NCBI GenBank assembly: GCA_043427975.1
Contig: JBHWTK010000033.1
Location: 77,502 to 141,501 of the forward strand
Length of the DNA stretch: 64,000 nt
Direction: 5' to 3'
Origin: Chloroflexia bacterium
Lineage (GTDB): Bacteria; Chloroflexota; Chloroflexia; Thermomicrobiales; UBA6265
Both the position numbers and the translations under genes were made by a program. Below the pieces are notes generated by a model. It saw only the letters and a program-made list of their open reading frames with translations, did not search any database and was not told the origin of the DNA. Below are positions 9,668 through 26,062 of the stretch, piece after piece (within the stretch, counting starts at the first letter, position 1; each line of letters begins with the position of its first letter).

Positions 9668-10476
9668 GCCAGCCAGCGGATAGCGCGCCGCACAACGACG
9701 GGAGTCATGAGGGCGGATGTGATGATCGATGCCGCCAGAGCGAGATTGTGATGTGATTCCGTCCCGGCGCCAGTAGACGGCAATGCACTCACAACCGGGA
9801 CCGCAGGTGCAGGCGGCACGCCGTCCGTTGATCCAGATACGTTCACCACTGAAGGTGGCGCGCCGGAAGCGGGAATCGTCGACGCCGGAGAGGCCTGTGG
9901 CTCGCTCACAGGCGGTACAGGCGGGGTCGGGGAGGCTTGCGGAGAAGGCGGCATATTACCGGGAATGGAAGCGTCAAATGGGGCCGGGTCATCGACGTCA
10001 ATCACGCCGTCGTTGTCGTCATCCAGATCGAGGTCATCGGCCATGCCATCGCCATCGATATCGGAACCGTGAGTTCCTGGCTCGGGCTCTAGGGGCGCGG
10101 AGGTGCCGGGCACCGCCGGGTTGTATGGATCTGGATCTTCGTCATCCATCACCGTGTCGCCGTCGGCGTCGAGATCGAGGTCGTCAGCCAAACCGTCGCC
10201 ATCAATGTCGGAACCGTGAGATCCCGGCTCAGGCCTGGGAGGCCCAGAGGTGCCGGGCACCTCCCGGTTTAGAGGTTCAGGATCATTGATATCGGTCACG
10301 CCATCACCGTCGTCATCAGCATCAAATTCGTCCGGCTGGCCATCCCTGTCTGTGTCGACGGGGAGTGACATGGCGGGGAGCAACGGTGCGTAACCAACAG
10401 AGGCAGCAGCCAGGCCAGTCTGCAGGAGCAGCAGTGATACGACCACCGGCATCACGATAAGAACTCGCAGCTTCAT
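9664..10476 (-). CDS. LPXTG-anchored secreted protein with thrombospondin type 3-like Ca-binding repeats
   Basis: Signal peptide; DxDxDGxxD repeats (DTDRDGQPDE, DIDGDGLADDLDLDADGD, DIDGDGMADDLDLDDDNDG); ~49-aa internal tandem duplication; C-terminal LPSTG, then a hydrophobic stretch and an RRAIR tail. Confidence 0.75.
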   Translation of the reverse strand: MKLRVLIVMPVVVSLLLLQTGLAAASVGYAPLLPAMSLPVDTDRDGQPDEFDADDDGDGVTDINDPEPLNREVPGTSGPPRPEPGSHGSDIDGDGLADDLDLDADGDTVMDDEDPDPYNPAVPGTSAPLEPEPGTHGSDIDGDGMADDLDLDDDNDGVIDVDDPAPFDASIPGNMPPSPQASPTPPVPPVSEPQASPASTIPASGAPPSVVNVSGSTDGVPPAPAVPVVSALPSTGAGTESHHNLALAASIITSALMTPVVVRRAIRWLA

Positions 10477-11645: not shown

Positions 11646-11690
11646 GGGGTGCCTAACGGGTTTCGAACCCGTAACCTCTTGTTCCACAGA
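11646..11690. repeat. attL: 45-bp direct repeat, a displaced 3' fragment of tRNA-His (anticodon loop to 3' end, with CCA)
   Basis: ggggtgcctaacgggtttcgaacccgtaacctcttgttccacaga is identical to 25988-26032; there is no 5' half of a tRNA here. Confidence 0.9.
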
Positions 11691-11818
11691 AAAGACTTGG
11701 TGCTAAGTTGCGTATGGGGCAGTTCGGCCCGGTTTGCGAAAAAGCCCATAAAATCCACGAAAACGGCTCATACTTTGTGGCAGAGTTTGGTAAAATAAGG
11801 GTTAGACGGGCGGAGTGT

Positions 11819-11850
11819 TCACGCCGCCATCACGCCGCCATCACGCCGCC
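11819..11850 (+). repeat. 3 x TCACGCCGCC at 11-bp spacing (candidate integrase arm-type sites, left arm)
   Basis: Copies at 11819-11828, 11830-11839 and 11841-11850; the same decamer recurs three times at 25883-25922. Confidence 0.6.
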
Positions 11851-11872
11851 GAGCACTGAGGGAACGTTCCAC

Positions 11873-13153
11873 ATGGCCGTAACACCACGCTACCGAATGG
11901 TGAAGAACCCGGAGACGGGCAAGAAGGAACCGGTGTACGCGAAGAAGAAGGGCGGTGGCATCCGGCTGGATAGCGAGGGCAAGCCGATACGCGAGGTTGT
12001 CAGCTGGAAGGTGGAAGTATGGGGTGTTGATGCCAGTGGTATGCGGCGGCGCAAGGTGGTAGGCAGCTACACCTACAAGGACGATGCCAAGCGAGCGGAG
12101 CGGGATGCGCTGCGAGCGATTGAGACGGGCGTGTTCGAGTGGGAGGAACGAAAGCCGGAGCCGGAGACGATCATTCCAAGCGTGCGCGAGGCGTGCGAGA
12201 CATGGATACGGCTAAAGGCGCTGAAGATAGAGCAAAACACGGTGAGCTCCTATGAGGGCGTATTGAAGAACCATATTGGCCCGGTGTTCGGAGACGAACA
12301 TGTGACGACCGTGACGCACGAGATGGTGCAGAGATGGGTTCTCGACATGCAAGAGGCCGGCAGGCATGCGCAGACAATCAGCCGTTCGCTGGTGGTGTTG
12401 AGTGGTGCGCTAGACCGGCAAGTACGCAGTGGCCTGCTAAGCGCAAACCCGGCGCTGGGCGTTGAGAAGCCGAGTGTCAACAAGGGCAAGAAAGACGTGG
12501 CACAGTGGAGCGCCGAACAGGTAGCAGCGTTCTTTGAGGCCGCCAGCGCTCACGACTATGCACCGGCGTTCTGGTTAGGTGAGCTGGAAGGCATGCGCCG
12601 GGCGGAAATCCTGGGCTTGCGTTGGAGCGATATACGCGGGCTGGATACGGACGGCGGCCCAGTGGTGGCGAGCATTGCGCAGACGTGCGTTGCCGACCAA
12701 CGCAACGGCGGCCGGGCGTTGCTGCAACCGAAGGCCAAAACCCGCAGTTCGGAGCGGGCGATTCTGCTCACACAGCCAACGGTAGAGGCGTTGCGACGAC
12801 ACCGCGATAAGCAGGCGTTCATCCGTAAGCAGGCGGGCGATGCGTGGCAGGCGCATGACCTGGTGATCTGTAACGAACTGGGCGAGCCGATACGGCCAGC
12901 GTGGTTCACGATCTGTACAAAGCGGATGGTGAAGGAAGCCGGGCTGCCAGAACTGACACCGCATGCGCTCCGACACCATGCGCTTACCCGGCTGCTGAGG
13001 CAGGGTGTAAGCCCGGCCTTGGCAGCACAGAAGGCTGGGCACAGCGATGTTGGGCTGGTGTATCGGAGCTATGGGCACTTGGTTCAGAGCGACCAGAGCG
13101 CGGCAAATGCGGCCATTGAACGCGAGCTAGCGACCGGTACAGGCCAGAGTTGA
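11873..13153 (+). CDS. int: tyrosine-type site-specific integrase
   Basis: C-terminal catalytic blocks HALRHHALT and GHSDVGLVYRSYGHL; basic N-terminal arm-binding-like domain; start set at ATG 11873 (MAVTPRYRMV) rather than 11708. Confidence 0.9.
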   Translation: MAVTPRYRMVKNPETGKKEPVYAKKKGGGIRLDSEGKPIREVVSWKVEVWGVDASGMRRRKVVGSYTYKDDAKRAERDALRAIETGVFEWEERKPEPETIIPSVREACETWIRLKALKIEQNTVSSYEGVLKNHIGPVFGDEHVTTVTHEMVQRWVLDMQEAGRHAQTISRSLVVLSGALDRQVRSGLLSANPALGVEKPSVNKGKKDVAQWSAEQVAAFFEAASAHDYAPAFWLGELEGMRRAEILGLRWSDIRGLDTDGGPVVASIAQTCVADQRNGGRALLQPKAKTRSSERAILLTQPTVEALRRHRDKQAFIRKQAGDAWQAHDLVICNELGEPIRPAWFTICTKRMVKEAGLPELTPHALRHHALTRLLRQGVSPALAAQKAGHSDVGLVYRSYGHLVQSDQSAANAAIERELATGTGQS

Positions 13154-13237
13154 CAGAATCCATGATGGCGGGTTAGGATGCGTTTACCGAACGGGAGGTT
13201 CGGCGAAAACGAATTTTGGCACATGGGTGCACCGCAA

Positions 13238-13300
13238 AGGCGGGCGACTTGTGAGGATGAACCGGATATTCCGGCCTCGCAGTCGCCCGCCTCTTTCGTT
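13238..13300 (+). terminator. long hairpin terminator between int and xis
   Basis: 12-bp arms aggcgggcgact (13238-13249) and agtcgcccgcct (13281-13292) enclosing the palindrome ccggatattccgg, followed by ctctttcgttttcg. Confidence 0.55.
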
Positions 13301-13342
13301 TTCGAGATTTGATCGGCGTAAGCCGGAAGGGAGGATATTCAG

Positions 13343-13582
13343 GTGGTTACTGCACGACGGAAGCCCGGCGCGGCAAGCCCGTTGGTTGACGCTAACGAAA
13401 TGGCGCAGGCGCTCGGAATCAGCAAATGGAGCGTTTACGAGGGCGCGAAAGCCGACACTCTGCCGATTCCGACGCTCAGAATCGGCAAGCGGTCGTACAG
13501 GTGGTCCCGTGCGCAGCTCGAAAAGCTGCTCGCAGGTGAGCTGGAGCCACGTGATGCTGGCGGTGGCGGAGATGATCGGTAA
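13343..13582 (+). CDS. excisionase/AlpA-like helix-turn-helix DNA-binding protein
   Basis: 79 aa; MAQALGISKWSVYEGAKADTLPIPTLRIGKRSYRWSRAQLEKLL resembles the excisionase-family HTH; GTG start with a GGGAGGA RBS. Confidence 0.7.
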   Translation: MVTARRKPGAASPLVDANEMAQALGISKWSVYEGAKADTLPIPTLRIGKRSYRWSRAQLEKLLAGELEPRDAGGGGDDR

Positions 13583-13671
13583 CGCGAAGTTTGGGGCCTG
13601 GAAAAGCCCGGCACTCTCTCCAGACGGCCGGGCTTATCCAAGACATGAAGCGCTTACCCGTGAAGCGATAG

Positions 13672-15024
13672 GTGAAGCACATGGACACTGTAGCACACGA
13701 CAACACGAACGAAATACGCTTTCCGCGTGCCTACGTTCATCATGCGCTGGAGGGCAATTTGCTTGACGCCGGGTTGTCGCTGGTTGCCAGCCCGCAGGGC
13801 TTCCGGGCATTGTGGACGAATGCGGATACCAAACAGCCCATAACGTCCGGTGGTGTGGCAGATGCCACCCGATATGGCTCGGAGTTATACGCCATGCACG
13901 AAGTCATACCGGAGCACATCGAACCAGCGTTGGCAATGGTGACACCGAGCGGCGCTGCCGTCGTGGACTGGGACGCTGACAAAGGGCCGCGCCCGCTTGG
14001 CTTGCCCACGGGCCGCAGTTCAATAGGGCCGTACGAGACTACGCGGGGCGGAGCGCACTGGTTTACCGCGCTGCCAGCGCAAGTGGACCTCGTTTCCAGC
14101 CACGATTCTGGAGAACTCAGAGCTGGGCCGAACAGCTACACGATCGTCTGTCCGTCTCCGGGGAAAGAGGCATGGCGGGCGGCTGGTGGCGCGTTCAACA
14201 TGCTGCCATGGCCGTTGCTGCCCGAAGACGGTAGCCTGTGGCTGAATTACTTACGTGCAGGTGTTCGTCGGGAACACATGGCGGAGATCATCGCCCGCGA
14301 CATTACGCAAGCGGACCGCAGGCAGGCGGATACGATCACAACGAACCTGCTGAAGGGCCGGTTCGGCAGCACCGTCACAGCGATTCTCAGAGGCGAGATC
14401 GAAGACCGTTATCCGAGCCGGAGCGAAGCCGACTTCGCGCTGCTATTCATGGCAACGCACTTCGATGCTTCCGAAGGCTGCCTTGCCGAACTGCTGTTTC
14501 GTCATTCACGAAAACTCCGTGACAAGCATACGGCCGCTTCGCAATCGTCATACATATCCAGCACCGTTTCCGCTGCCCTTGCCACCCGTTCACTCACCGA
14601 CTACACCCGGCTCGCGAACATTGCCCAGATTCTCCATTTCTCCACCTTGCCCTTTTCCATTCCCCACCCCACACCACCACATAGCCGCAAGGTGTGTATG
14701 TTGCCAGAAAACGGAATATGGGTGGTTGGAGGAATGGCGGAGAGACGGAAAAAGGAGCGCGGAGAAATGCTGGCCGCAAGCATTCTGGAATGGGCTGGCA
14801 GGTATGGAGCTGGTGACGGTTACGACTGGACTGACGGCTGGAGGCGATTGCCGGTTGAGGACATGGGCGCGATTCATGGATACGGTCGAGAGGGCGTGAG
14901 GACGAAGGTTCTAGCGCTCATTGATGCTGGATTCATCGAACGCAGGCTGCATGTTGCGAAGTGCGACAAGGGACACGACCGGCGCACAACGTTGATTCGA
15001 TTAACAAAGGGAGCACAGAGATGA
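13672..15024 (+). CDS. putative replication protein with prim-pol (bifunctional primase/polymerase)-like N-terminal domain
   Basis: Order of blocks KQPITSGG...AAVVDWDADKG...TTRGGAHWFTALP...YTIVCPS matches the prim-pol pattern (DxD metal site, sGGxHxyF, PpS); C-terminal half unassigned. Confidence 0.55.
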   Translation: MKHMDTVAHDNTNEIRFPRAYVHHALEGNLLDAGLSLVASPQGFRALWTNADTKQPITSGGVADATRYGSELYAMHEVIPEHIEPALAMVTPSGAAVVDWDADKGPRPLGLPTGRSSIGPYETTRGGAHWFTALPAQVDLVSSHDSGELRAGPNSYTIVCPSPGKEAWRAAGGAFNMLPWPLLPEDGSLWLNYLRAGVRREHMAEIIARDITQADRRQADTITTNLLKGRFGSTVTAILRGEIEDRYPSRSEADFALLFMATHFDASEGCLAELLFRHSRKLRDKHTAASQSSYISSTVSAALATRSLTDYTRLANIAQILHFSTLPFSIPHPTPPHSRKVCMLPENGIWVVGGMAERRKKERGEMLAASILEWAGRYGAGDGYDWTDGWRRLPVEDMGAIHGYGREGVRTKVLALIDAGFIERRLHVAKCDKGHDRRTTLIRLTKGAQR

Positions 15025-15509
15025 GCAGCGAGGGACTGAGGCCACTGATCGCATATTTCGACCTGACACAAGGGCCGCTTAGTTTGCAGCAGGCAATGAA
15101 CGCGCTAGGCGTTCAGAATCCGCGCAAGCTGCGCTACGCACAGTTGGAGGGCCGGGACACGTTGATTCACGACCCGAAAACAATGTCTCACAGTGCGCGA
15201 AGGCGCTACAGACGAGCATCTGGTGAAGATGCCTGGAAGGTGCTACAGGCGCTGGTTGAGGTTTCGGTACCCATTGGGCCGATGGTTGAAGCGATGTCTC
15301 ACGAAGCGAAAAGAGGCGCTGAGATGCTGGCAGCGTTGGCAGCTGACGACCCACGGGTATTGAAGTACATGCAAGTTGACGGCGGAGGAATGCTGGTACG
15401 TGACCCGTCCGCATTCACCGACGAAGAGCTACATGAGTATCTGGACATATTCGGTCCCGATCATCTGGAGGCAGTCAAGGCCAGTATCACAAAGCACTTC
15501 GGCGACTAG
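15021..15509 (+). CDS. hypothetical protein (island)
   Basis: ATG at 15021 overlaps the previous stop (ATGA coupling); no recognisable motif. Confidence 0.5.
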   Translation: MSSEGLRPLIAYFDLTQGPLSLQQAMNALGVQNPRKLRYAQLEGRDTLIHDPKTMSHSARRRYRRASGEDAWKVLQALVEVSVPIGPMVEAMSHEAKRGAEMLAALAADDPRVLKYMQVDGGGMLVRDPSAFTDEELHEYLDIFGPDHLEAVKASITKHFGD

Positions 15510-15540
15510 AGCGGCATAGCCCGCAAGGAGGAACACCATC

Positions 15541-16077
15541 ATGGCACAGCGAACAGGGTGTGACCGGCCTATTGGTAGCGCGGCAATGGACGGCGAACCG
15601 GGCACCGGGATAGCAGCGCTGGAACAGCGAACACGAACAACGCTGGAAGAGCTGCACACGGCACGAGATGCATATAGCGAGGCTATTGAGGCGCACGCTG
15701 CAAGCGAACGGATGCTACTGCGAGCGCGGCGCGAAGCGCTGGAAGCTGACGCAGCGGCGGCGCTGGGGTTGGAGCGCTCTCAACTGGAGACCGCGATTAG
15801 CGCGGCGGCGCAAGCATCGCGTGCTCAGACCGGCGTTGTCGTGGCTGACGGCATAAACGGAGCCTGGCCGAAATGGCTAGCTCCAAAGATGCAGGAGGCG
15901 GCCGCGCAATGCGGGCCGGATGAAATACCGGGCGTGCTTTTGGTTCGTGGCCTAAGTGGCAGCACGCGGGAAGCGGACCCTGCAACAGCGCTTGTGCTTG
16001 ATACAACGGGCCGGGTGTCGCGGCCTCTATCCGGGCTTACAGCGAGCGAACTGGCACGTCGAAGGAGCAGCCGGTAA
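15541..16077 (+). CDS. hypothetical protein (island), Ala-rich helical
   Basis: 178-aa ORF co-directional with its neighbours; no recognisable motif. Confidence 0.45.
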   Translation: MAQRTGCDRPIGSAAMDGEPGTGIAALEQRTRTTLEELHTARDAYSEAIEAHAASERMLLRARREALEADAAAALGLERSQLETAISAAAQASRAQTGVVVADGINGAWPKWLAPKMQEAAAQCGPDEIPGVLLVRGLSGSTREADPATALVLDTTGRVSRPLSGLTASELARRRSSR

Positions 16078-16099
16078 CGGATGCGGAGAGGATCTTAAG

Positions 16100-16591
16100 A
16101 TGCCACCTTGCACGGTTTGTACACATCCAAAACGGCTACACATTGATCGGGCGCTAGTTACCGATGGTGCAACCGTGCGAGACACAGCGCGTAAGTTTGA
16201 CGTGACCGTTTCCGCACTTGGCAGGCACCGCAAGAACCATTTGGCACCGGCGCTCGCAAAGCATGAAGAGCATTTCGATTTGGCGACAGCTCAAGGTATC
16301 GGCAACCAGCTTGCCACCATTCACGCGGAGGCAACGCGGTTGCTGCACGAGGCCCGCGAGGACGGAAACCGGCGCGATCAGCTATCAGCACTCGCACGGC
16401 TGGAGCGGCAGATCGAGTTAGCTGCAAAGCTCGCAAGCCTGATTCAAGACGGCCAGAGAGTAGCCGTGTCGGTGCAACTTGATACCGGCTGGCCGCTGGT
16501 TCGGAGCGCGATTCTCGAAACCCTGGCTAACCATCCGGCGGCATTGCAGGCGGTGAGCGAACGATTGGCGGCGCTGGAGCAACCAACATGA
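16100..16591 (+). CDS. putative terminase small subunit (CxxC plus HTH N-terminus)
   Basis: MPPCTVCTHPKRLHIDRALVTDGATVRDTARKFDVTVSALGRHRKNH; stop overlaps the start of the terminase ATPase ORF (ATGA). The call is based on position plus the HTH. Confidence 0.5.
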   Translation: MPPCTVCTHPKRLHIDRALVTDGATVRDTARKFDVTVSALGRHRKNHLAPALAKHEEHFDLATAQGIGNQLATIHAEATRLLHEAREDGNRRDQLSALARLERQIELAAKLASLIQDGQRVAVSVQLDTGWPLVRSAILETLANHPAALQAVSERLAALEQPT

Positions 16592-17346
16592 ACGCGGTCG
16601 CTGACCTTGCCAAGGATTTGCGCCTGCGGTTGGATGCGAACGCGCTGGCCGAGCACTGCGGCTACGATCTGGACCCGTGGCAACGGGAGCTGGTGCAAAG
16701 CCCGGCAAAGCAAGTGCTGATAGCGGCAGCGCGGCAGGTTAGCAAGACGTTAGCTTGCAGCATCGTTGCAGCGTTTGAAGCATTGCGCTTGCCAGACGGT
16801 TTGATCGTGGTTGTATCGCCTAGCCAACGCCAAAGCACAGAGCTATTCCGGCAGGTTGTGGAGTTGCTACGTAAGGCAAAGCTGGAATCAATCACGGCTG
16901 AAAGCTCCATGCGGTGCGAGTTGGCAAACGGCTCGCGTGTGGTAGCACTGCCGGGCAGCTCGCAAACCATTCGCGGACTAAGCGGGGCGCGGGCGATCAT
17001 CGTTGACGAAAGCGCATTCGTGCCGGACGAACTGTACGCGGCGGTGCTGCCTATGGCGGCCACAAGTGACGGGCGCTTGATTCTGGCATCGTCACCGGCT
17101 GGCACGGTGGGCTACTTCGCTAGGCAGTGGCGGGATGGTGGCGAGACGTGGCAGCGGGTGAAAGTGCGAGCTGACCAATGCAGCCGGATTAGCCCAGAGT
17201 TCCTTGCACGGCAGCGGTTGATGCTGACCGCACAGCAATATGCAGCCGAGTTTGAAGCGGAATTTGTCGAGGGTGCGGGCGCGGTGTTCCGGGCCGATGA
17301 TCTGGCACGACTGCATGAAGAGCCGGTAGCGGCATGGGAGGTTTGA
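16588..17346 (+). CDS. terminase large subunit, ATPase domain only (N-terminal half)
   Basis: Deviant Walker A AARQVSKT, Walker B AIIVDES, PWQRE block typical of TerL N-termini; ends after about 250 aa. Confidence 0.65.
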   Translation: MNAVADLAKDLRLRLDANALAEHCGYDLDPWQRELVQSPAKQVLIAAARQVSKTLACSIVAAFEALRLPDGLIVVVSPSQRQSTELFRQVVELLRKAKLESITAESSMRCELANGSRVVALPGSSQTIRGLSGARAIIVDESAFVPDELYAAVLPMAATSDGRLILASSPAGTVGYFARQWRDGGETWQRVKVRADQCSRISPEFLARQRLMLTAQQYAAEFEAEFVEGAGAVFRADDLARLHEEPVAAWEV

Positions 17347-17348
17347 GC

Positions 17349-18116
17349 ATGGACACAAAGCGACGATACACCGGAGAGAATGGCAATTACGCAACGAACG
17401 TAGACCGCGATAGTGGAGCCTATGCGGGTGCAAGGCACCGTGTGAAGGGCTTTGAACCGGACGTGCCAACCGGGCCGGAAAAACTGAACGTGCAGGTTGG
17501 CATTGACGCGGGCCAGATTGGAGACAGCACGGCGGTTTCAATCTCGGAGTGGACTGCCCGCAATGATGGTTTGCATTTCATGGTGCGGCGGCTGGAGCGG
17601 CTGCCGCTTGGGCTGCCATACCCTGCACAAGCTGACCGCATTGTTGAAATTCTGGAAGGGCTGCGGGCGATGTCTGCTAAGTGGGAAGCCGAAGGTACGG
17701 GGGTCATGGACATTCTCACGGTGCTAGACGTTACTGGCGTCGGGCGCGGCCTATTCGATCTGCTGACAGAACGCGGCGAAACGATAGTGCCCGTCACCAT
17801 CACCAGCACCGAACGGCTTACACAGCGCGATGATGCTGAATGGAGTTGCGGCAAGAGCGTGCTAGTGAGCAACCTGCTTATCGGCATTCAGCGCGGCGCG
17901 GTTCACCTGCCACAAGGCACAGAGGCAGAGGCGCTGCTATCGGAGCTGCAAAGTTTCCGGCTGCAAGAGACGCCGAGCGGAAAGCTGACGTTCAACGCGA
18001 AGAGTGGTTCACATGACGATCTGATTACGGCCCTGGGATTATCGACACTGCCGGGGTTGCGGCCACCGGAGCCACCGGGCTTTTACGGCATGGCAGTTGT
18101 GAAAGGCGGCTGGTGA
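17349..18116 (+). CDS. terminase large subunit, RNase H-like nuclease domain only (C-terminal half)
   Basis: VGIDAGQIGDSTAV, VLDVTGVGRG and SGSHDDLITALGLS acidic blocks typical of the TerL nuclease; different frame from the ATPase ORF (alternative ATG at 17334 overlaps it by 13 nt). Confidence 0.6.
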   Translation: MDTKRRYTGENGNYATNVDRDSGAYAGARHRVKGFEPDVPTGPEKLNVQVGIDAGQIGDSTAVSISEWTARNDGLHFMVRRLERLPLGLPYPAQADRIVEILEGLRAMSAKWEAEGTGVMDILTVLDVTGVGRGLFDLLTERGETIVPVTITSTERLTQRDDAEWSCGKSVLVSNLLIGIQRGAVHLPQGTEAEALLSELQSFRLQETPSGKLTFNAKSGSHDDLITALGLSTLPGLRPPEPPGFYGMAVVKGGW

Positions 18117-18415
18117 TGCGCGACCAACAGGAGACACAATTTCGCTGGCCTGATGACGGCAACGCGGTGAACGTTACCCGTGATGCCCTGGCGAGCATTT
18201 CAATGCCGGAGATTGTCGACTACGTGCTGCCTGGCCTTTCCGGCAAGGCGGTGCTGGCCGCTTGGATGCTGGCAACCGGAGCGGACGCGAGCGCAGTACG
18301 GCGAACCCTGAACATCACACCGGAAACGCTACGAGCCTATTGCGGCTCGATTCTGGACGCGACGCAGGCACACAGTGGCGAAACGATCATCTTGCCAGTT
18401 GGAGGGAAACCATGA
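18113..18415 (+). CDS. hypothetical protein (island)
   Basis: 100-aa ORF; start overlaps the previous stop (GTGATG). Confidence 0.45.
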   Translation: MMRDQQETQFRWPDDGNAVNVTRDALASISMPEIVDYVLPGLSGKAVLAAWMLATGADASAVRRTLNITPETLRAYCGSILDATQAHSGETIILPVGGKP

Positions 18416-18624
18416 GCACACAGACCAAAGGCGAGCGGCTTGCCGAGATAGCCGAACGGTCGGAAGGCACAGCAACGCACGCGCTGGCAGAGATACGCAT
18501 ACTCCGGCCGGATGGTGGCTACGCGGCTAACGTGCATCGTGATCTTGTAGCGACATTAGAAACCCTGGAGCGGATGACTGACCAACTGCGTTATGCGCAA
18601 CAGCGTGATCGGGGTGCATTGTGA
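18412..18624 (+). CDS. hypothetical small protein (island)
   Basis: ATG at 18412 overlaps the upstream stop (ATGA); 70 aa. Confidence 0.4.
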   Translation: MSTQTKGERLAEIAERSEGTATHALAEIRILRPDGGYAANVHRDLVATLETLERMTDQLRYAQQRDRGAL

Positions 18625-18857
18625 GTGAACGGATTGAATCCCGGTTGCTGACAGCGGCCGCGGCGATCAAAGCACCACTGCGGACACTGACAGACGCAAC
18701 CACAGACGCGGCGCAATCGAACTGGGAGCTTGCACATTGGCAACGTTCGGATGCTTGCCAAGAGGTGTTTGAGAGCTGCCACCAACTGCAACAGGCAATC
18801 GATAATGCCGAGCGGATGCTTTCACAAGCGCCACCGCTACCAAAGCGCAAACGATGA
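18621..18857 (+). CDS. hypothetical small protein (island)
   Basis: GTG start overlapping the upstream stop; 78 aa with a basic C-terminus KRKR. Confidence 0.4.
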   Translation: MSERIESRLLTAAAAIKAPLRTLTDATTDAAQSNWELAHWQRSDACQEVFESCHQLQQAIDNAERMLSQAPPLPKRKR

Positions 18858-18957
18858 AACACAGCCGAAGTGGAGAGATGCAAGCGGCTTGGACCAATAC
18901 CGGGCCGCTTTTGCGTTGTGGAAAGAAGACGAGGCGTTTATTTGCCCTGTAAGCGTA

Positions 18958-19055
18958 GAAAAGGGGTGAACCCTAGTCAGTACCCGCGTAACGGGCTATC
19001 GAATTAGCTACCCGGCAAAGAGTTGCAAACAGCGGCATGTTCGCATGATGTTCTG
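18958..19055 (+). repeat. imperfect direct repeat R1 (about 95 bp)
   Basis: aaagggGTGAACCCTAGTCAGTACCCgcGTaAcGGCTATCGAATTagCTACCCGGCAAAGAgtTGCAAAC... aligns with 19755-19865 at roughly 80% identity by eye. Confidence 0.75.
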
Positions 19056-19103
19056 AATTTAAGGGGTCTTTGAAACTTGGGGACCTAGTGATACCCTGAA
19101 AAG

Positions 19104-19601
19104 ATGAAGCTAGTTATACTCAGCGGGCCCACGGGCGCCGGTAAAAATACGATAGCGGAATTGGTAGCGCAGCAGCGGGGTCGGTGTGCGGGGATCGACT
19201 TCGATGTGCTCCGCAATATGTTTCTTAAGCCCCATTTGACTCCTTGGGACGGCGACGCCGGGCATCGTCAGAACGTCTTGGGCGTTGACCATGCCTGTAT
19301 GTTGGCTAGCAGCCTCCTTGCCAATGGCTATGACTGCATAATCCTGGATGTGTTGAGTGATGAAACGGCATCCTTATACAAGGAAAGACTGAGTCACCAC
19401 GATCCGGTCATCGTTCAGCTTTTACCCACATATGACGAAATACTGAGGCGGAATCGTACGAGACCGCCTCGGCTGACTGATGAGGAGCTGGAAATGGTGT
19501 ACCAAGGTCAACTGGAGTTTTCGATGTTCGACGAACGAATAGACAACACTGGTCTTTCACCTCAAGAGGCGGCAGATCGCATTCTCGCGATGATTGCATA
19601 G
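19104..19601 (+). CDS. small P-loop NTPase/kinase (AAA_33 / zeta-toxin-like fold class)
   Basis: Walker A ILSGPTGAGKNT at residues 5-16; 165 aa; lines sampled here are about 43-50% GC by hand count versus about 60% in flanking host genes. Confidence 0.65.
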   Translation: MKLVILSGPTGAGKNTIAELVAQQRGRCAGIDFDVLRNMFLKPHLTPWDGDAGHRQNVLGVDHACMLASSLLANGYDCIILDVLSDETASLYKERLSHHDPVIVQLLPTYDEILRRNRTRPPRLTDEELEMVYQGQLEFSMFDERIDNTGLSPQEAADRILAMIA

Positions 19602-19754
19602 ATGATAAGTTCAAGCTGCATATCTCGACGTAGCACCTCACCGGCGTAGAAATCACCTAGGAATCCAGCAGATAGAAGACTATTCAGCACCATTCCGCCC
19701 AGTGGAAGAAGCGTGGCCTGGATAAAGTAGCCCTAGGATCGATTCTAAGCGCCT

Positions 19755-19865
19755 GAAAGGGCTGCACCCTAGTCAGTACCCATGTGAATGGCTATCGAAT
19801 TCCCTACCCGGCAAAGAATCGCAAACTCGGACATGCTCGCGTTGTGTTCGGAACTGATGTTCTGG
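19755..19865 (+). repeat. imperfect direct repeat R2 (partner of R1)
   Basis: gaaagggCTGCACCCTAGTCAGTACCCatGTgAatGGCTATCGAATTccCTACCCGGCAAAGAatCGCAAAC... Confidence 0.75.
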
Positions 19866-19911
19866 ATTGGCACCACGGTTGCAACGTAGGTGACTAACGG
19901 TCAGCGAGCCC

Positions 19912-21584
<1,673 letters not shown>

Positions 21585-21627
21585 ATCGCGAGAGTACCTG
21601 TTAGCACATTGAAGAATGGCAGGTGAT

Positions 21628-22389
21628 ATGGAACTAGCCCTTGTGATTGCGATTGTGGCGGCCGGATTTGCAGGCTGGACGGCCTGGGAATCCCGACGAT
21701 CTGCGGGCGCTGCTTTGGCATCCGCAAAGGCGGCGGAGAGTTCGGCGGCAGCGTCACAAGTGGCCGTGCAACTGGAATCAAAACGGTTCGAATGGGAGCA
21801 GAGCGCACGACTTGCGCTCACAGAGCGGAGTGCATATCAAGGCCACCTAAACACCGTGCTGGCTGCCCAGCTGAACAACGTGGTGAATGCGGCAGTGAAT
21901 GACTGGCCGGAGTACATCGCTTTTGAGTTCCGAAATGTCGGGCAAGCACCAGCCACCGATATAGATGTTCAAGCGCATTATCTGGGAGATGTGTTCAGGC
22001 CGCAAGACAGCGTGAAGGCAACGGTGGCGAGTGGTGAGACGGTGCACTTCGTTTTCAATGTGAAGACGTTTCCAACCGGACGTGCTGACATGATGAAATT
22101 TCTATTGCTCGTCAAATACCACGATATTCGGCCGCATGAGCTGGCACTACAAATGGCCGTTTACTCAAAAACCGGAGGGCCGGACAATCCGTATCTTGCA
22201 CATAACAAAGACGGTGCCTTCTACAAGCCTTCGGTTGTTCTGGCAGAGCTTGACGGTGCTCGGCACGAAGAGATGGAAACCGGCGACGTCGTTTGGGTGG
22301 ATGCGTCGCTAAAGATAGCTCGCGAGGAACGGAGACGAATGCGACGCGGCGATTTCGAATCAGGTGCAAAACAACCGTCCACTATGTAG
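21628..22389 (+). CDS. membrane-anchored hypothetical protein A1 (paralogue of 23235-23921)
   Basis: N-terminal hydrophobic helix MELALVIAIVAAGFAGWTAW followed by ESRRSAG; C-terminal domain with a FRNVGQAPA block reminiscent of a beta-sandwich; start at ATG 21628, supported by the conserved upstream GGCAGGTGAT. Confidence 0.7.
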   Translation: MELALVIAIVAAGFAGWTAWESRRSAGAALASAKAAESSAAASQVAVQLESKRFEWEQSARLALTERSAYQGHLNTVLAAQLNNVVNAAVNDWPEYIAFEFRNVGQAPATDIDVQAHYLGDVFRPQDSVKATVASGETVHFVFNVKTFPTGRADMMKFLLLVKYHDIRPHELALQMAVYSKTGGPDNPYLAHNKDGAFYKPSVVLAELDGARHEEMETGDVVWVDASLKIAREERRRMRRGDFESGAKQPSTM

Positions 22390-22416
22390 CGTTCGCATTC
22401 GATGGGCAGGGGAGAG

Positions 22417-23166
22417 ATGAGCAAGCCAAGCCGCAAAAGCAAGCGACAGCCGCGCCTTGGCATTTGCGTGTACTGCGGCATAAGCGGCGAAGTCACGAGA
22501 GACCATGTGATTCCCCGTGGCATGTTCCACCACCGAGCGAACTCCACCTTTACCGTTGATGCTTGCAGGGCATGTAACGTGGACAAGTCCAGATACGATC
22601 CTGAGCTGCGAGATTTTGCAATATCGAACATGAACTCGGGTCAGCATCCATACCACGACGAGATATTGCACCGCATGTTCCGAGCAGTAAGCCGTAATCA
22701 ATCGCGGATTGGAAGGCGTATCAAGTGGCTAGCAAGGCCACGGACGTTCGTGCATAACGGCGAGATTATCGACGGAGTTTCAGTCCCTATCGACGGAGAG
22801 GACCAGCGAAAGGCTGTTGCGTACATCGCCAAAGCGGTTTGGTATCGGCATTTCGATGAGGTGGCAACGGACGGCATGTTGGAGAGCCGATATTTTGACA
22901 TGTTCGCAATCAAGCCGGAGGTGATGATGCTGGAGATCACGGAATCGCAGCCGCCAATCCAGTTGCTCGACAAGGAAGGTGTCGCGCTCATCTGTGGTTG
23001 GCCGTTCGTTGTTGGTGATCGGGGTCGAAAGGTACTGTTCATAACTATGCGCTTCTATGGTGGCCCTGCTTATAGCGTTGTGATGGACAATCGCCGTAGT
23101 GAGCCGCTCGAAGATGAAGTGCCGATAGCCAAGATCGTGGCAAGCGGTGATCGTGCCGACGATTAA
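22417..23166 (+). CDS. HNH endonuclease-motif protein with uncharacterised C-terminal domain
   Basis: CVYCGISGEVTRDHVIPRG...CRACNVDKS (CxxC...DH...CxxCN..K beta-beta-alpha-metal finger); about 185 aa downstream unassigned; start ATG 22417 with a GGGGAGAG RBS (alternative 22402). Confidence 0.75.
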   Translation: MSKPSRKSKRQPRLGICVYCGISGEVTRDHVIPRGMFHHRANSTFTVDACRACNVDKSRYDPELRDFAISNMNSGQHPYHDEILHRMFRAVSRNQSRIGRRIKWLARPRTFVHNGEIIDGVSVPIDGEDQRKAVAYIAKAVWYRHFDEVATDGMLESRYFDMFAIKPEVMMLEITESQPPIQLLDKEGVALICGWPFVVGDRGRKVLFITMRFYGGPAYSVVMDNRRSEPLEDEVPIAKIVASGDRADD

Positions 23167-23234
23167 TGTTGATCGGTTGATCTATGGTGAGCCGAAAAGT
23201 TGCATGTTAGCTGTTAGAGGGAACGGCAGGCGAT

Positions 23235-23921
23235 ATGGAGCTAACCATTGCAATCCTCGGCTTGACAGTCGCGATTCTTGCCGCCGGATTTGCGGGCTGG
23301 ACCGCGTGGGAATCGCGACGATCTGCCGGTGCTTCTATAGCGTCTGCGAAGGCGGCAGAGAGTTCGGCAGCGGCGTCTGAGAAAGCCGTGCAGCTGGAGG
23401 CGCAGCGTTTTGACTGGGAGCGAACTGCGAGGCTTGTGCTGGTACGAAGAATGGTTAGCATCCATCAAGTTGAGCAGTTCGAGAACGCGGACCATATCCA
23501 ATGGCCAAGCGCGGTGGGACTGGAGCTTTCCAACGCAGGCCAAGCGCCTGCGCTTGGCCTGAAGATAGGGGCCTTGATTCTTGGAGAATATCATTTGCCC
23601 GTGCATTCCCCCAGTCAGTCAATCGGGCCGGGTGATTCAGCAGTCACTTACTTCGAGCTTCGGGATATAACGCTGCCGCCGGATCACTTGCTGCGCATGG
23701 TGGTCACCTGCCAGTATCACGATGTTGGTGCTCACGAATTGACGCTTCACTTGGCGCTTCATTCCAAGTCAGGTGCTCCAACCGATTCCCACCTCAGGCA
23801 CAACCGATATGGCAATTACTACCTGCCGTCAGTCACAGCTGCACGTCTAGACGGCGCGGACCTTGAAGGCTGGGAAACCGGAGACGTAATAGAACTCCGT
23901 AGAGGTGAGCTAAGACACTGA
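23235..23921 (+). CDS. membrane-anchored hypothetical protein A2 (paralogue of 21628-22389)
   Basis: MELTIAILGLTVAILAAGFAGWTAWESRRSAGASIASAKAAESSAAAS is nearly identical to A1; shared C-terminal YHD..HEL..SK.G.P..H.N..Y.PSV..LDGA..ETGDV. Confidence 0.7.
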   Translation: MELTIAILGLTVAILAAGFAGWTAWESRRSAGASIASAKAAESSAAASEKAVQLEAQRFDWERTARLVLVRRMVSIHQVEQFENADHIQWPSAVGLELSNAGQAPALGLKIGALILGEYHLPVHSPSQSIGPGDSAVTYFELRDITLPPDHLLRMVVTCQYHDVGAHELTLHLALHSKSGAPTDSHLRHNRYGNYYLPSVTAARLDGADLEGWETGDVIELRRGELRH

Positions 23922-24052
23922 ATCAGCCATCAACCTGATGCTCTGTCACCTTGGTTGCAGTATCGGAAGCCAACTGGGACGCACCGAATTGTAGCTCGGA
24001 CGCCTCTATTGTTTGACGACTATGAAGTAGTGCAAAGCGTAAGGAGCGACAC

Positions 24053-25834
24053 TTGACTGAGGTAAATGAAGCGGCTGAAATCGATCCGATTACTACTTTG
24101 GCGGTCTCGATGCAGGCCCAGCAAGGCACATTTGCTTTACTTCTCGGTTCTGGCGTATCGCAATCCGCACAGATTCCAACCGGATGGGCTATTATCGAGG
24201 ACTTGATTAGGCGCATCGCCAAAGTCGAGGGCCATGAGATTCAAGGGAAGCCCACAGACTGGTACCAGGAAACCTACGGCGAAGAACCTGACTACAGTCG
24301 ATTGCTTGACGCACTATCAACGACCCCACTGGAACGAAGCCAGATCATCAAGCGGTTCATTGAGCCAACAGAAGAAGAGCGTGAGGTAGGGGTGAAGCAG
24401 CCGACCTTAGCGCACCGGTCGATTGCCTCACTCGTTGCCAAGGGCTACGTCAAAGTCATCGTCACTACGAATTTTGACCGGCTGCTCGAAACGGCATTGG
24501 CTGACGCAGGGGTGGTGCCTTCGGTGATTAGCACACCCGATGACGTCCAGGGGACACTGCCCTTGGCGCACAACGCTTGTACCATCATCAAAATCCATGG
24601 TGACTATCTTGATTCCCGCATTCGCAATACCACCGACGAGTTGTCTAACTACCCGGTAGAGATGAGGAACCTCTTATCCCAGGTGTTTCGGGAGTATGGG
24701 CTAATCGTGAGCGGCTGGTCAGGGGATTGGGATCACGCGTTGTGCGAGGCGATGTGTGAGACGTTAAGTCCGTGGTTTCCCACGTACTGGGTTTCCTATC
24801 GAGAACCAGGTAAGAAAGCGCAGGGGATTGTCGAGCAGCGGGGCGGCAAGCTGATAACAAACATGGGAGCAGACGCATTCTTTGAACGGTTGGCAGACAG
24901 CGTTGCAGCGGTGGAAGATATGCAGAATCCTGAACTGGTCTCCGTTGATATTGCTGTAGCAACGCTGAAACGGTATCTTGATGATCCTTCCAAGCGCATC
25001 CGTCTTCACGATTTGGTGATTGGGGAAGCTACCCGTGTTCAACGGTCACTCATCGAAGTTCCGGCAGGTTATTTCCTTGAGAACCCAACCCAGGAATCCG
25101 TCGTCAATCGATTGGAATCTTATGAAGCGAGTACCGCTGTACTTCGGGCTCTATTTATCACCGGATGTTACTGGTCGGCAGATGACCACGATCTCCGCCC
25201 TTGGGTTACTGCGCTGGAGCGCCTTGCTGCCTTAGGAAATGGACCAGGAACCTTCCATCGTCATTGGGTAGCGCTACGGCGATACCCGGCACTCCTAACG
25301 CTTTTTGCCGGCGGAATTGCCGCGCTGGCGAACCGTCGGTTCAAGACTCTCCATGCGTTGCTCTATCAACCGGCATCAATTGATATTTATCGACATGAAC
25401 GCAATCCCATGGTCATTTCTGTCCATCAGGCGTTGTTCGAACCGGTGGCCGATCTTCTCTATCCCGGATACTACTCCGACACAGCCGCAAGCCTGCGAAT
25501 GCGAAATACCGAATCTCTGTGGTCGGTGCTGCGAGAATACGTCCCGGACCAAGATCGATTCAAAGAGCTGTTCAACGAGTTCGAGTATCTATTCGGGCTC
25601 GTCCACACAGACTTGGCTCACCAGCATGATTTCGGCGCGTGGTATCCAACCGGTCTACTTCCATACCTTGGGCACGGTTATGACCGTGACAAACTAATCG
25701 AGCGGATGGACAGGGAGGTTCAGGAAATGCAGAGCCAGTGGCCACCGTTGCAAGCTGGGATGTTTAGCGGGTCACTCGGACGGTTACAGGAGGTCAAACA
25801 AGAATTCGATGAACGGCTGAAGAAGCGTCATTAG
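24053..25834 (+). CDS. SIR2_2-family (sirtuin-like) protein with about 300-aa uncharacterised C-terminal region
   Basis: FALLLGSGVSQSAQIPTGW (Gly-rich NAD loop), VIVTTNFDRLLE, IIKIHGDYLD; TTG start 7 nt after AAGGAG. Confidence 0.8.
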   Translation: MTEVNEAAEIDPITTLAVSMQAQQGTFALLLGSGVSQSAQIPTGWAIIEDLIRRIAKVEGHEIQGKPTDWYQETYGEEPDYSRLLDALSTTPLERSQIIKRFIEPTEEEREVGVKQPTLAHRSIASLVAKGYVKVIVTTNFDRLLETALADAGVVPSVISTPDDVQGTLPLAHNACTIIKIHGDYLDSRIRNTTDELSNYPVEMRNLLSQVFREYGLIVSGWSGDWDHALCEAMCETLSPWFPTYWVSYREPGKKAQGIVEQRGGKLITNMGADAFFERLADSVAAVEDMQNPELVSVDIAVATLKRYLDDPSKRIRLHDLVIGEATRVQRSLIEVPAGYFLENPTQESVVNRLESYEASTAVLRALFITGCYWSADDHDLRPWVTALERLAALGNGPGTFHRHWVALRRYPALLTLFAGGIAALANRRFKTLHALLYQPASIDIYRHERNPMVISVHQALFEPVADLLYPGYYSDTAASLRMRNTESLWSVLREYVPDQDRFKELFNEFEYLFGLVHTDLAHQHDFGAWYPTGLLPYLGHGYDRDKLIERMDREVQEMQSQWPPLQAGMFSGSLGRLQEVKQEFDERLKKRH

Positions 25835-25882
25835 CATTTACGTTGAGGTAGCAGAGGAGGCGAGCGAAGAGATGCGAAATCA

Positions 25883-25922
25883 TCACGCCGCCAAATAGCA
25901 TTCACGCCGCCGTCACGCCGCC
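25883..25922 (+). repeat. 3 x TCACGCCGCC (candidate integrase arm-type sites, right arm)
   Basis: Copies at 25883-25892, 25902-25911 and 25913-25922, in the same orientation as the left-arm copies. Confidence 0.6.
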
Positions 25923-25987
25923 ACGAAAAACAGTGAACCGGCCACCCTGTATGAGTGGCCGATTTCCTTGATTCTATAGGGTTTCCG

Positions 25988-26032
25988 GGGGTGCCTAACG
26001 GGTTTCGAACCCGTAACCTCTTGTTCCACAGA
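25988..26032. repeat. attR: 45-bp direct repeat inside the intact tRNA-His gene
   Basis: Identical to 11646-11690. Confidence 0.9.
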
Positions 26033-26062
26033 CAAGCGCTCTGCCGTTGAGCTATAGGCACC
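25990..26062 (-). tRNA. tRNA-His (anticodon GTG)
   Basis: Cloverleaf with extra G-1 opposite C73, acceptor GTGCCTA/TAGGCAC, anticodon loop CUGUGGA, TTCGAAA T-loop; followed by CCC rather than CCA. Confidence 0.9.

Follow-up and report, generated by a model that had tools for sequence, protein, structure and literature searches.

SIR2 enzymes that hydrolyse nicotinamide adenine dinucleotide (NAD+), here called NADases, rank among the main outputs of prokaryotic immunity and have descendants in eukaryotes; the sensor linked to them differs from one system to another. Activation through a change of oligomeric state is a common logic of ThsA, DSR2, SPARSA, Avs5 and KomC. DSR2 of Bacillus subtilis is a chain of 1,005 amino acids (aa) whose catalytic residues are S51, N133, D135 and H171, and which carries a MID region (linker plus helical bundle) and a C-terminal domain of 11 HEAT-like repeats that binds the phage tail tube (PMC11850899). 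We studied a 593-aa SIR2 protein encoded in a 64,000-nucleotide stretch of contig JBHWTK010000033.1 from a Chloroflexia bacterium (positions 77,502 to 141,501 of the forward strand, assembly GCA_043427975.1); the whole stretch is called the window, and all coordinates refer to it. An initial annotation, made from the sequence alone, had presented this protein as a stand-alone sirtuin without the usual defence partners that possibly senses infection through a neighbouring gene product, A2. We consider it fairly likely that the gene encodes a self-contained, single-polypeptide, SIR2-based abortive-infection candidate of the PDC-S65 family (see below), carried as cargo of an island integrated at a tRNA-His gene.

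The SIR2 gene and its family

The gene and the domains of its product were placed as follows:

24041..24046, + strand: Shine-Dalgarno sequence AAGGAG, read from the sequence
24053..25834, + strand: SIR2 gene of the PDC-S65 family, 593 aa plus stop (open reading frame list, PADLOC PDLC05061, identical NCBI protein)
24116..24922, + strand: predicted N-terminal SIR2 (sirim-type) NADase domain, aa ~22-290 (Pfam, PADLOC, PDB, Foldseek, AlphaFold2 confidence about 90)
24146..24154, + strand: codons of the G32-S33-G34 dinucleotide-binding loop, invariant in 42/42 family members
24470..24478, + strand: N140-F141-D142 of the TTNFD motif, counterpart of DSR2 N133/D135, invariant in 42/42
24596..24598, + strand: H182 codon, putative catalytic His of KIHGDY (H in 37/42, N in 5/42; aligned with KIHGDF of SIR2-APAZ)
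24923..24940, + strand: inter-domain linker, aa 291-296, with the only internal low-confidence AlphaFold2 segment (aa 292-295)
24941..25831, + strand: predicted C-terminal all-alpha domain, aa ~297-593, putative sensor or regulator (AlphaFold2 model; portable module in other proteins)

The open reading frame (ORF) starts at TTG, and its ribosome-binding site AAGGAG lies 6 nt 5' of that codon, as had been annotated initially. No alternative in-frame start was found ahead of the region common to the homologues, and a 593-aa protein identical to that of the window is recorded on an NCBI contig. The three motifs first taken as SIR2_2 hallmarks were all recovered: ALLLGSGVSQSAQIPTGW at aa 28-45, VTTNFDRLLE at aa 137-146 and KIHGDYLD at aa 180-187. 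The Pfam SIR2_2 model scored 45.9 bits against a gathering cut-off of 24.5 (E = 8e-12), its match being confined to aa 135-225. A Pfam HAD match of the same protein fell below the cut-off and was treated as noise.

The family signal was far beyond chance. The full-length PADLOC profile PDLC05061, a model of PDC-S65 (phage defence candidate, single gene 65), matched at E = 1.7e-194 and 646.5 bits, with aa 9-591 aligned to profile positions 15-588 of 592; a second PDC-S65 model, PDLC05060, matched at E = 1.7e-115, and 2,896 homologues were scored in a search of 5.8 billion proteins. By these profile matches the window protein is a member of an already catalogued family and no orphan: it shares with PDC-S65 the size of ~590 aa, the single-gene organisation and colinearity over the full length, and no structural difference was seen. 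The initial annotation had set the protein apart from ThsA, the DSR families and other described single-gene SIR2 defence proteins. This is contradicted in part: it does align end to end with a single-gene candidate and, because PADLOC already catalogues PDC-S65, the gene belongs to a known kind, one that is itself predicted. The hidden Markov model (HMM) comparisons suggested with that annotation came out unevenly: SIR2_2 passed, the ThsA models covered only aa 95-212 (E = 7e-7, within the SIR2 part), and no DSR-named PADLOC model appeared at E <= 0.01.

The best 120 of the 2,896 homologues were 569-623 aa long, with 96-100% query coverage and 39-71% identity, apart from the identical protein. 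When one genome per species was scanned, at least 562 genomes carried a relative; they belonged to many bacterial phyla and to archaea (Methanothrix, Heimdallarchaeota), and the closest was a Thermomicrobiales metagenome-assembled genome with 47% identity. Near-full-length copies were also found on 33 plasmid records from Streptomyces, Bacillus, Cupriavidus, Rubrobacter and haloarchaea, mostly annotated as 'SIR2 family protein'; the cultured hosts Bacillus cereus SRCM116293 and several Streptomyces carry full-length plasmid copies. Homologues from cultured hosts include WP_262314321.1, on the plasmid of B. cereus SRCM116293, and WP_266499448.1 of Streptomyces sp. NBC_00053. Phage genomes yielded no full-length member, only similarity at the level of the SIR2 domain with at most 49% coverage. 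The literature searched made no mention of PDC-S65, and what it offered on SIR2 clades, on SIR2 with hsdS/hsdR and on shared C-terminal sensors held nothing about the family either.

In an alignment of 42 PDC-S65 members, G32-S33-G34, T138-T139-N140-F141-D142, K180 and G183-D184-Y185 were invariant, and position 182 was His in 37 and Asn in 5. The window positions G32-S33-G34, N140, D142 and H182 match the catalytic S51, N133, D135 and H171 of DSR2, so that, as judged from the alignment, the protein holds a complete NAD-binding and catalytic set. The five members with Asn instead of His keep every other active-site residue, and could form a catalytically distinct or inactive subgroup.

PADLOC, the PDB sequence search and Foldseek placed the N-terminal part among SIR2 domains of defence systems. 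After PDC-S65, the next-best PADLOC models covered the SIR2 part only (Aga_SIR2-PNTD, E = 4e-32, aa 22-248), and the models named 'SIR2', presumably those of SIR2-HerA, were weak (E >= 2e-5) and confined to the N-terminal part. The top PDB sequence matches were SIR2-APAZ chains (8in8/8jkz, E = 4e-11, aa 30-230), with KomC, DSR2 and ThsA also matching. Foldseek against the PDB returned SIR2 domains only: SPARSA 8y80_E came first (E = 7e-10 over 322 columns, mostly SIR2 domain), then DSR2, KomC and ThsA, all with probability 1.00 and with target-normalised template modelling (TM) scores of 0.61-0.69 to isolated SIR2 chains. The full-length AlphaFold2 model had a mean predicted local distance difference test (pLDDT) of 89.5; aa 292-295 formed its sole internal low-confidence stretch, which marks the linker. 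Taken from sequence and model, the N-terminal ~290 aa are predicted to be a defence-type (sirim) SIR2 fold, closest to the SIR2-APAZ proteins associated with prokaryotic Argonautes (pAgo).

A portable C-terminal domain

The initial annotation had described the C-terminal ~300 aa as helical-looking and unassigned, and this description stood. Against Pfam, the region gave nothing at E <= 10 other than noise (including a BBE match at E = 0.07), and a profile search of PDB sequences gave nothing. The structure was predicted for aa 293-593 alone from a 25-sequence alignment: the model was compact and nearly all helical, with one short beta-hairpin, a pLDDT of 92.3 and a predicted TM score (pTM) of 0.92. 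Foldseek found no significant match for it in PDB or BFVD (best E = 0.45-0.53, TM <= 0.28); the weak PDB matches were ARM/HEAT-type proteins (E >= 0.5, TM <= 0.28) and were not significant either. HMM coverage, the PDB profile search and Foldseek together ruled out an APAZ, a SLOG domain or a DSR2-type MID/HEAT solenoid, and no STAND module was found, in agreement with the early suggestion that the sensing part differs from those described. As modelled, the C-terminal half is thus a separate compact all-alpha domain (hereafter the C-domain) that matched no named domain or solved fold.

A profile of the C-domain was searched against 1.84 billion representatives, and 3,568 proteins matched at E <= 1e-3, of which 1,281 at E <= 1e-30. 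Architectures were inspected for the best 150 of the 3,568, and 149 of these were compared with the full-length profile: 52 were full-length SIR2 fusions, 71 were colinear fragments truncated at the N-terminus, and 26 joined an unrelated N-terminal region to a complete C-domain. These 26, with the zinc-ribbon variant P0136 added by eye, made up 12 groups. The N-terminal regions that Pfam could assign were:

P0134, P0224 and P0241: TIR_2
P0157: SEFIR/TIR_2
P0150: TIR-like CAP12/Pycsar domain, weak match
P0158 group, 7 members: PilZ
P0190: DUF4062
P0200: HNH_2
P0207: protein kinase (Pkinase)
P0234: alpha/beta-hydrolase (DUF676; Abhydrolase)

In PADLOC, the alternative N-termini matched bSEFIR (E = 1.5e-52), ThsB, Aga_TIR and SAVED-TIR (CBASS TIR), and further CBASS endonuclease (HNH) effectors, SduA, PD-T4-6 kinases and PDC-S60. 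The C-terminus of every alternative fusion matched PDC-S65 positions ~290-590. The SEFIR fusion P0157 (locus L086, 3019-4476) is encoded on a mobile element, next to an HNH gene and an integrase. This module and its effector swapping were not found described in the literature searched.

About 30 core positions of the C-domain were at least 80% conserved whether the partner was SIR2 or another domain. They include K306, Y308, R353, Y357-E358, G371-C372, W374, W384, Y411-P-A-L, F510-E511-Y512, G534, W563 and G569/F571/G573; only three positions, all in the linker, were specific to the SIR2 fusions. Since the core is conserved whatever the partner, the C-domain would have a function of its own, independent of the attached enzyme. 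The modular pattern fits a sensor or regulatory module, and a core that stays invariant from one effector fusion to the next points to a conserved interface, for a ligand or for assembly, and not to a fast-evolving surface. We put forward, tentatively and as a possibility somewhat short of an even chance, that the C-domain is an unnamed, widespread immune control module (~3,600 representative clusters) swapped among SIR2, TIR, SEFIR, HNH, kinase, hydrolase and DUF4062 effectors, and that it senses one conserved infection cue or small-molecule ligand via its invariant core (K306, Y308, R353, Y357-E358, W374, W384, F510-E511-Y512, W563). If so, it would be a new class of sensor whose fold has no solved relative.

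The same conservation can be read the other way round, with the C-domain doing the executing or the assembling, for example as a scaffold that is membrane-active or forms filaments, and the N-terminal domains serving as input or accessory modules. The core is indeed more uniformly conserved across architectures than expected of a sensor of phage proteins; one helix of the C-domain (YPALLxLYAGGIAA, aa 411-426) is strongly hydrophobic and almost invariant; there are near-standalone versions with an N-terminal extension of only 31-62 aa; and in 7 of the 26 alternative architectures the N-terminal domain is PilZ, a sensor that binds cyclic di-GMP. In contrast, the other N-terminal partners assigned by Pfam are enzyme domains or effector-type families (CBASS, Thoeris, bSEFIR and PD-T4-6 models), domains that serve as the output in those systems, and the C-domain gave no catalytic-looking match to any known fold. 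We consider such a reversal or sharing of roles quite improbable.

With the C-domain as the regulatory part, it would hold the SIR2 domain inactive until an infection cue is detected. Activation would probably go through an altered oligomeric state, by analogy with the SIR2 systems named at the outset, and the activated SIR2 domain would hydrolyse NAD+, by which the infected cell is sacrificed and phage replication is stopped.

Neighbours of the family and the tRNA-His island

To survey partners, we took 80 homologue loci with up to 10 kb of flank each and clustered four ORFs per side. No conserved neighbour emerged. The largest recurrent clusters, in 13/80 loci, were HsdM and HsdS upstream and HsdR downstream, which means that in ~13/80 loci the SIR2 homologue lies inside a type I restriction-modification (R-M) operon, between hsdS and hsdR. 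Of 67 same-strand neighbours within 200 bp of the homologues, 59 were scanned against Pfam and PADLOC: Methylase_S (7), Abi_C (4) and N6_Mtase (3) were the most frequent, HmaC/DUF499, Type ISP, AbiEii-like ATPases and CcdB turned up as single cases, and the family listings of these 59 contained no Piwi, HerA, TIR or SLOG. The SIR2 gene stands free amid unrelated genes on two plasmids, one of Streptomyces and one of Bacillus cereus. PDC-S65 is thus a true single-gene unit associated with defence islands and mobile elements, and this bears out the stand-alone character first ascribed to the window protein, a SIR2_2 defence-type sirtuin. As a separate observation, an Abi_C protein of ~250 aa was encoded directly 3' of the SIR2 homologue in four loci (L015, L036, L044 and L057) in the order hsdM-hsdS-SIR2-Abi_C-...-hsdR; in L036 an AAA_13 ATPase also followed the pair.

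Several points weigh against the immune reading of the protein and its C-domain. The defence function and NADase activity assigned to PDC-S65 come from homology and association, and NAD+ hydrolysis may not be family-wide, given the Asn found in place of the catalytic His. The full-length model had a pTM of 0.55, and therefore the relative placement of the two halves is undefined in it. The lack of a structural relative for the C-domain applies to PDB and BFVD, and its architectures are those of the best 150 matches. Finally, the gene of the PilZ fusion P0158 (locus L085, 198-1778) lies among LarC/LarB and Tad-pilus genes with no defence context; the C-domain is thus not confined to immunity, and its role may be one of general regulation or assembly instead of phage sensing.

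Alternatively, the protein would be a regulatory sirtuin-like deacylase or ADP-ribosyltransferase with no immune role, its C-domain a general signalling or assembly module and the gene a passenger on mobile elements. Besides the PilZ fusions, a weak NCBIfam match to deacetylases of the CobB type (E about 2e-3) and the housekeeping neighbours of several homologue loci (CTP synthase, gyrase B) would agree with this. However, the CobB similarity amounts to 17 bits against a cut-off of 320, and the SIR2 domain is closest to those of SIR2-APAZ, DSR2, KomC and ThsA; PADLOC derived PDC-S65 as a defence candidate; homologues recur between hsdS and hsdR, and others adjoin Abi_C, AbiEii-like, HmaC/DUF499 or Type ISP genes; and the sister fusions carry effector domains of the kinds usual in defence systems. 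According to Bonhomme et al., the antiphage SIR2 proteins all fall in a single clade with defence neighbours enriched 12-fold, which also counts against a protein with no immune role. We regard that explanation as unlikely.

In the window, the 3' part of tRNA-His recurs as a direct repeat of 49 nt (11646-11694 / 25988-26036, 98% identical) whose two copies delimit an integrated element of 14.4 kb, in which the SIR2 gene is the final gene ahead of the right-hand repeat, the position first given to it. The features of this island other than the SIR2 gene were:

11646..11694, no strand: left att repeat, copy of the tRNA-His 3' part (repeat family D4)
11708..13153, + strand: tyrosine integrase (Pfam Phage_integrase E = 1e-16, Phage_int_SAM_3)
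13672-15024: primase-polymerase-like gene, weak sub-threshold match to the NrS-1 HBD domain
16588-17346 and 17334-18116: large terminase in two overlapping frames, Terminase_6N and Terminase_6C
19104-19601: P-loop kinase-like gene
21616-22389: paralogue A1
22402-23166: HNH-like gene
23235-23921: paralogue A2
25987..26062, - strand: tRNA-His(GTG), integration target, with the right att repeat at 25988-26036 (ARAGORN, repeat family D4)

The island yielded no SLOG, ThsB-type TIR, HerA or pAgo gene, which upholds the absence of the usual partners. The defence-type cargo is a block of ~7 kb at the far end, with a GC content of 0.52-0.57 against about 0.60 in the surroundings; it comprises the P-loop kinase-like gene, a methyltransferase-Mrr fusion, A1, the HNH-like gene, A2 and the SIR2 gene.

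The possible sensing through A2 fared less well. It would make a two-gene system in which a membrane-anchored A2 senses and signals to SIR2, with A1 and the HNH-like gene as a sister system with a different effector. A1 and A2 are paralogues with 45% identity and an N-terminal hydrophobic helix, each directly 5' of a co-oriented effector-like gene; in PADLOC, the HNH-like gene has a weak match to PDC-M01B, a component of a multi-gene candidate system; and A1, the HNH-like gene, A2 and the SIR2 gene occur together on a second, independently assembled contig. No promoter or terminator-like site was found in the gap between A2 and the SIR2 gene, a result that is uninformative; signal counts across the scanned region were below the shuffle means. 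On the other side, that gap is 131 bp long and the SIR2 gene has its own strong ribosome-binding site. Homologues of A1, A2 and the HNH-like gene were found by tblastn in none of the 80 loci with PDC-S65 relatives; the A1/A2 family comprises 4 clusters among 5.8 billion proteins, as compared with thousands for PDC-S65; and the other A homologue with known context adjoins a helix-turn-helix/ImmA-like gene, without SIR2 or HNH. The HNH-like protein lacks the C-terminal module (hhalign probability 0.3%), and A2 matched nothing in Pfam, PADLOC, NCBIfam or PDB. A2 was thus rejected as a general partner, and nothing requires a link with it: the PDC-S65 family clearly works without A2. We judge the two-gene system very improbable in the window as well.

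The position of the SIR2 gene at the extreme end of an integrative element, and the homologues on plasmids, could also suggest an addiction or stabilisation module, in which a toxic NADase kills cells that lose or excise the island and does not respond to phages. Yet the 80 loci showed no conserved small antitoxin-like neighbour, and many copies of the SIR2 gene are chromosomal, within R-M operons; this last alternative seems to us extremely improbable.

Some features of the island and its surroundings were recorded independently of the SIR2 gene. No capsid or tail genes were found in 11646-26036, and the island is closer in appearance to a phage satellite than to a prophage. The split terminase could be a frameshifted pseudogene or the product of a programmed shift. 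A 108-nt direct repeat (78% identical, 18950-19057 / 19746-19853, D3) brackets the kinase-like gene as if it were a separately inserted cassette. At 19950-21584, a 544-aa protein combines an N6/N4 DNA methyltransferase with a C-terminal Mrr_cat/NA-iREase1 nuclease-like domain, and from these domains may be a single-chain restriction-modification or modification-dependent enzyme. The 11-mer TCACGCCGCCA occurs in ~3 copies just inside each island end (11818-11851 / 25874-25923, D5 and D14), and its repeats are candidate arm-type binding sites for integrase or excisionase. A terminator-like hairpin at 25936-25964 (- strand; 12-bp stem plus T-run) lies directly 3' of tRNA-His, on that side of the att repeat which faces the island, so that the reconstituted tRNA gene receives its terminator from the island; the hairpin is also ~100 nt past the SIR2 stop codon. 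Outside the island, a 147-nt unit is tandemly duplicated at 9959-10252 (71% identical, D2), within an ORF.

Significance and comparison with known SIR2 systems

For the window itself the outcome is sobering: its SIR2 gene is no orphan and the proposed link with A2 is not supported. The interest that is left lies in the unnamed C-terminal module and in the effectors swapped in front of it. The same C-domain behind at least seven other N-terminal domains makes an anonymous 'SIR2 family protein' a tractable question; a cue found for one C-domain could explain a whole set of single-gene systems, and the plasmid copies in cultured hosts (Bacillus cereus SRCM116293, Streptomyces) make the question directly testable.

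Among the known systems, SPARSA SIR2-APAZ (8in8, 8jkz, 8y80) has the nearest SIR2 domain by sequence and fold and a similar length, about 585 aa. Its APAZ region has no counterpart here: the Aga_SIR2-PNTD profiles end at aa 248, and the C-domain model alone retrieved no SPARSA chain with Foldseek. The short pAgo (PIWI) of SPARSA is also missing, both in the window neighbourhood and among the 59 scanned neighbours. ThsA of Thoeris shares the SIR2 NADase fold (Foldseek 8wc0 and 6lhx, E about 1e-7), whereas its SLOG/Macro domain has no match in the C-domain by Pfam or fold, and no ThsB TIR gene was found in the island or listed among the 59 neighbours. In SIR2-HerA the SIR2 protein has about 350-400 aa, against 593 aa here, and there was no HerA among the neighbours. 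Avs5 (SIR2-STAND) has a central STAND NTPase domain, whereas neither Pfam nor PADLOC matched a STAND or P-loop domain in the window protein, whose C-domain is all-alpha, with no NTPase fold. The likeness to bSEFIR concerns the other half of the protein: P0157 joins a bSEFIR-type SEFIR domain to the C-terminal module of the window protein, but the bSEFIR profile matches the SEFIR part only (37-201 of 412), the C-terminus of bSEFIR itself being another domain.

The organisation most similar to that of the window protein is found in DSR2 (8k98, 8wy8): in each, a single chain carries a SIR2 domain at the N-terminus and a helical region behind it, and the S/N/D/H set is equivalent. They differ in length (1,005 vs 593 aa), and in the PDB sequence search they matched over aa 136-222 only (E = 0.036). 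DSR2 was not retrieved by Foldseek with the C-domain model alone, and the nominal full-length alignments, with a root-mean-square deviation of about 19 Å, hold nothing informative beyond the SIR2 domain. By analogy, DSR2 is the likely functional counterpart of the window protein, in which the C-terminal part would sense infection and the SIR2 domain would deplete NAD+.

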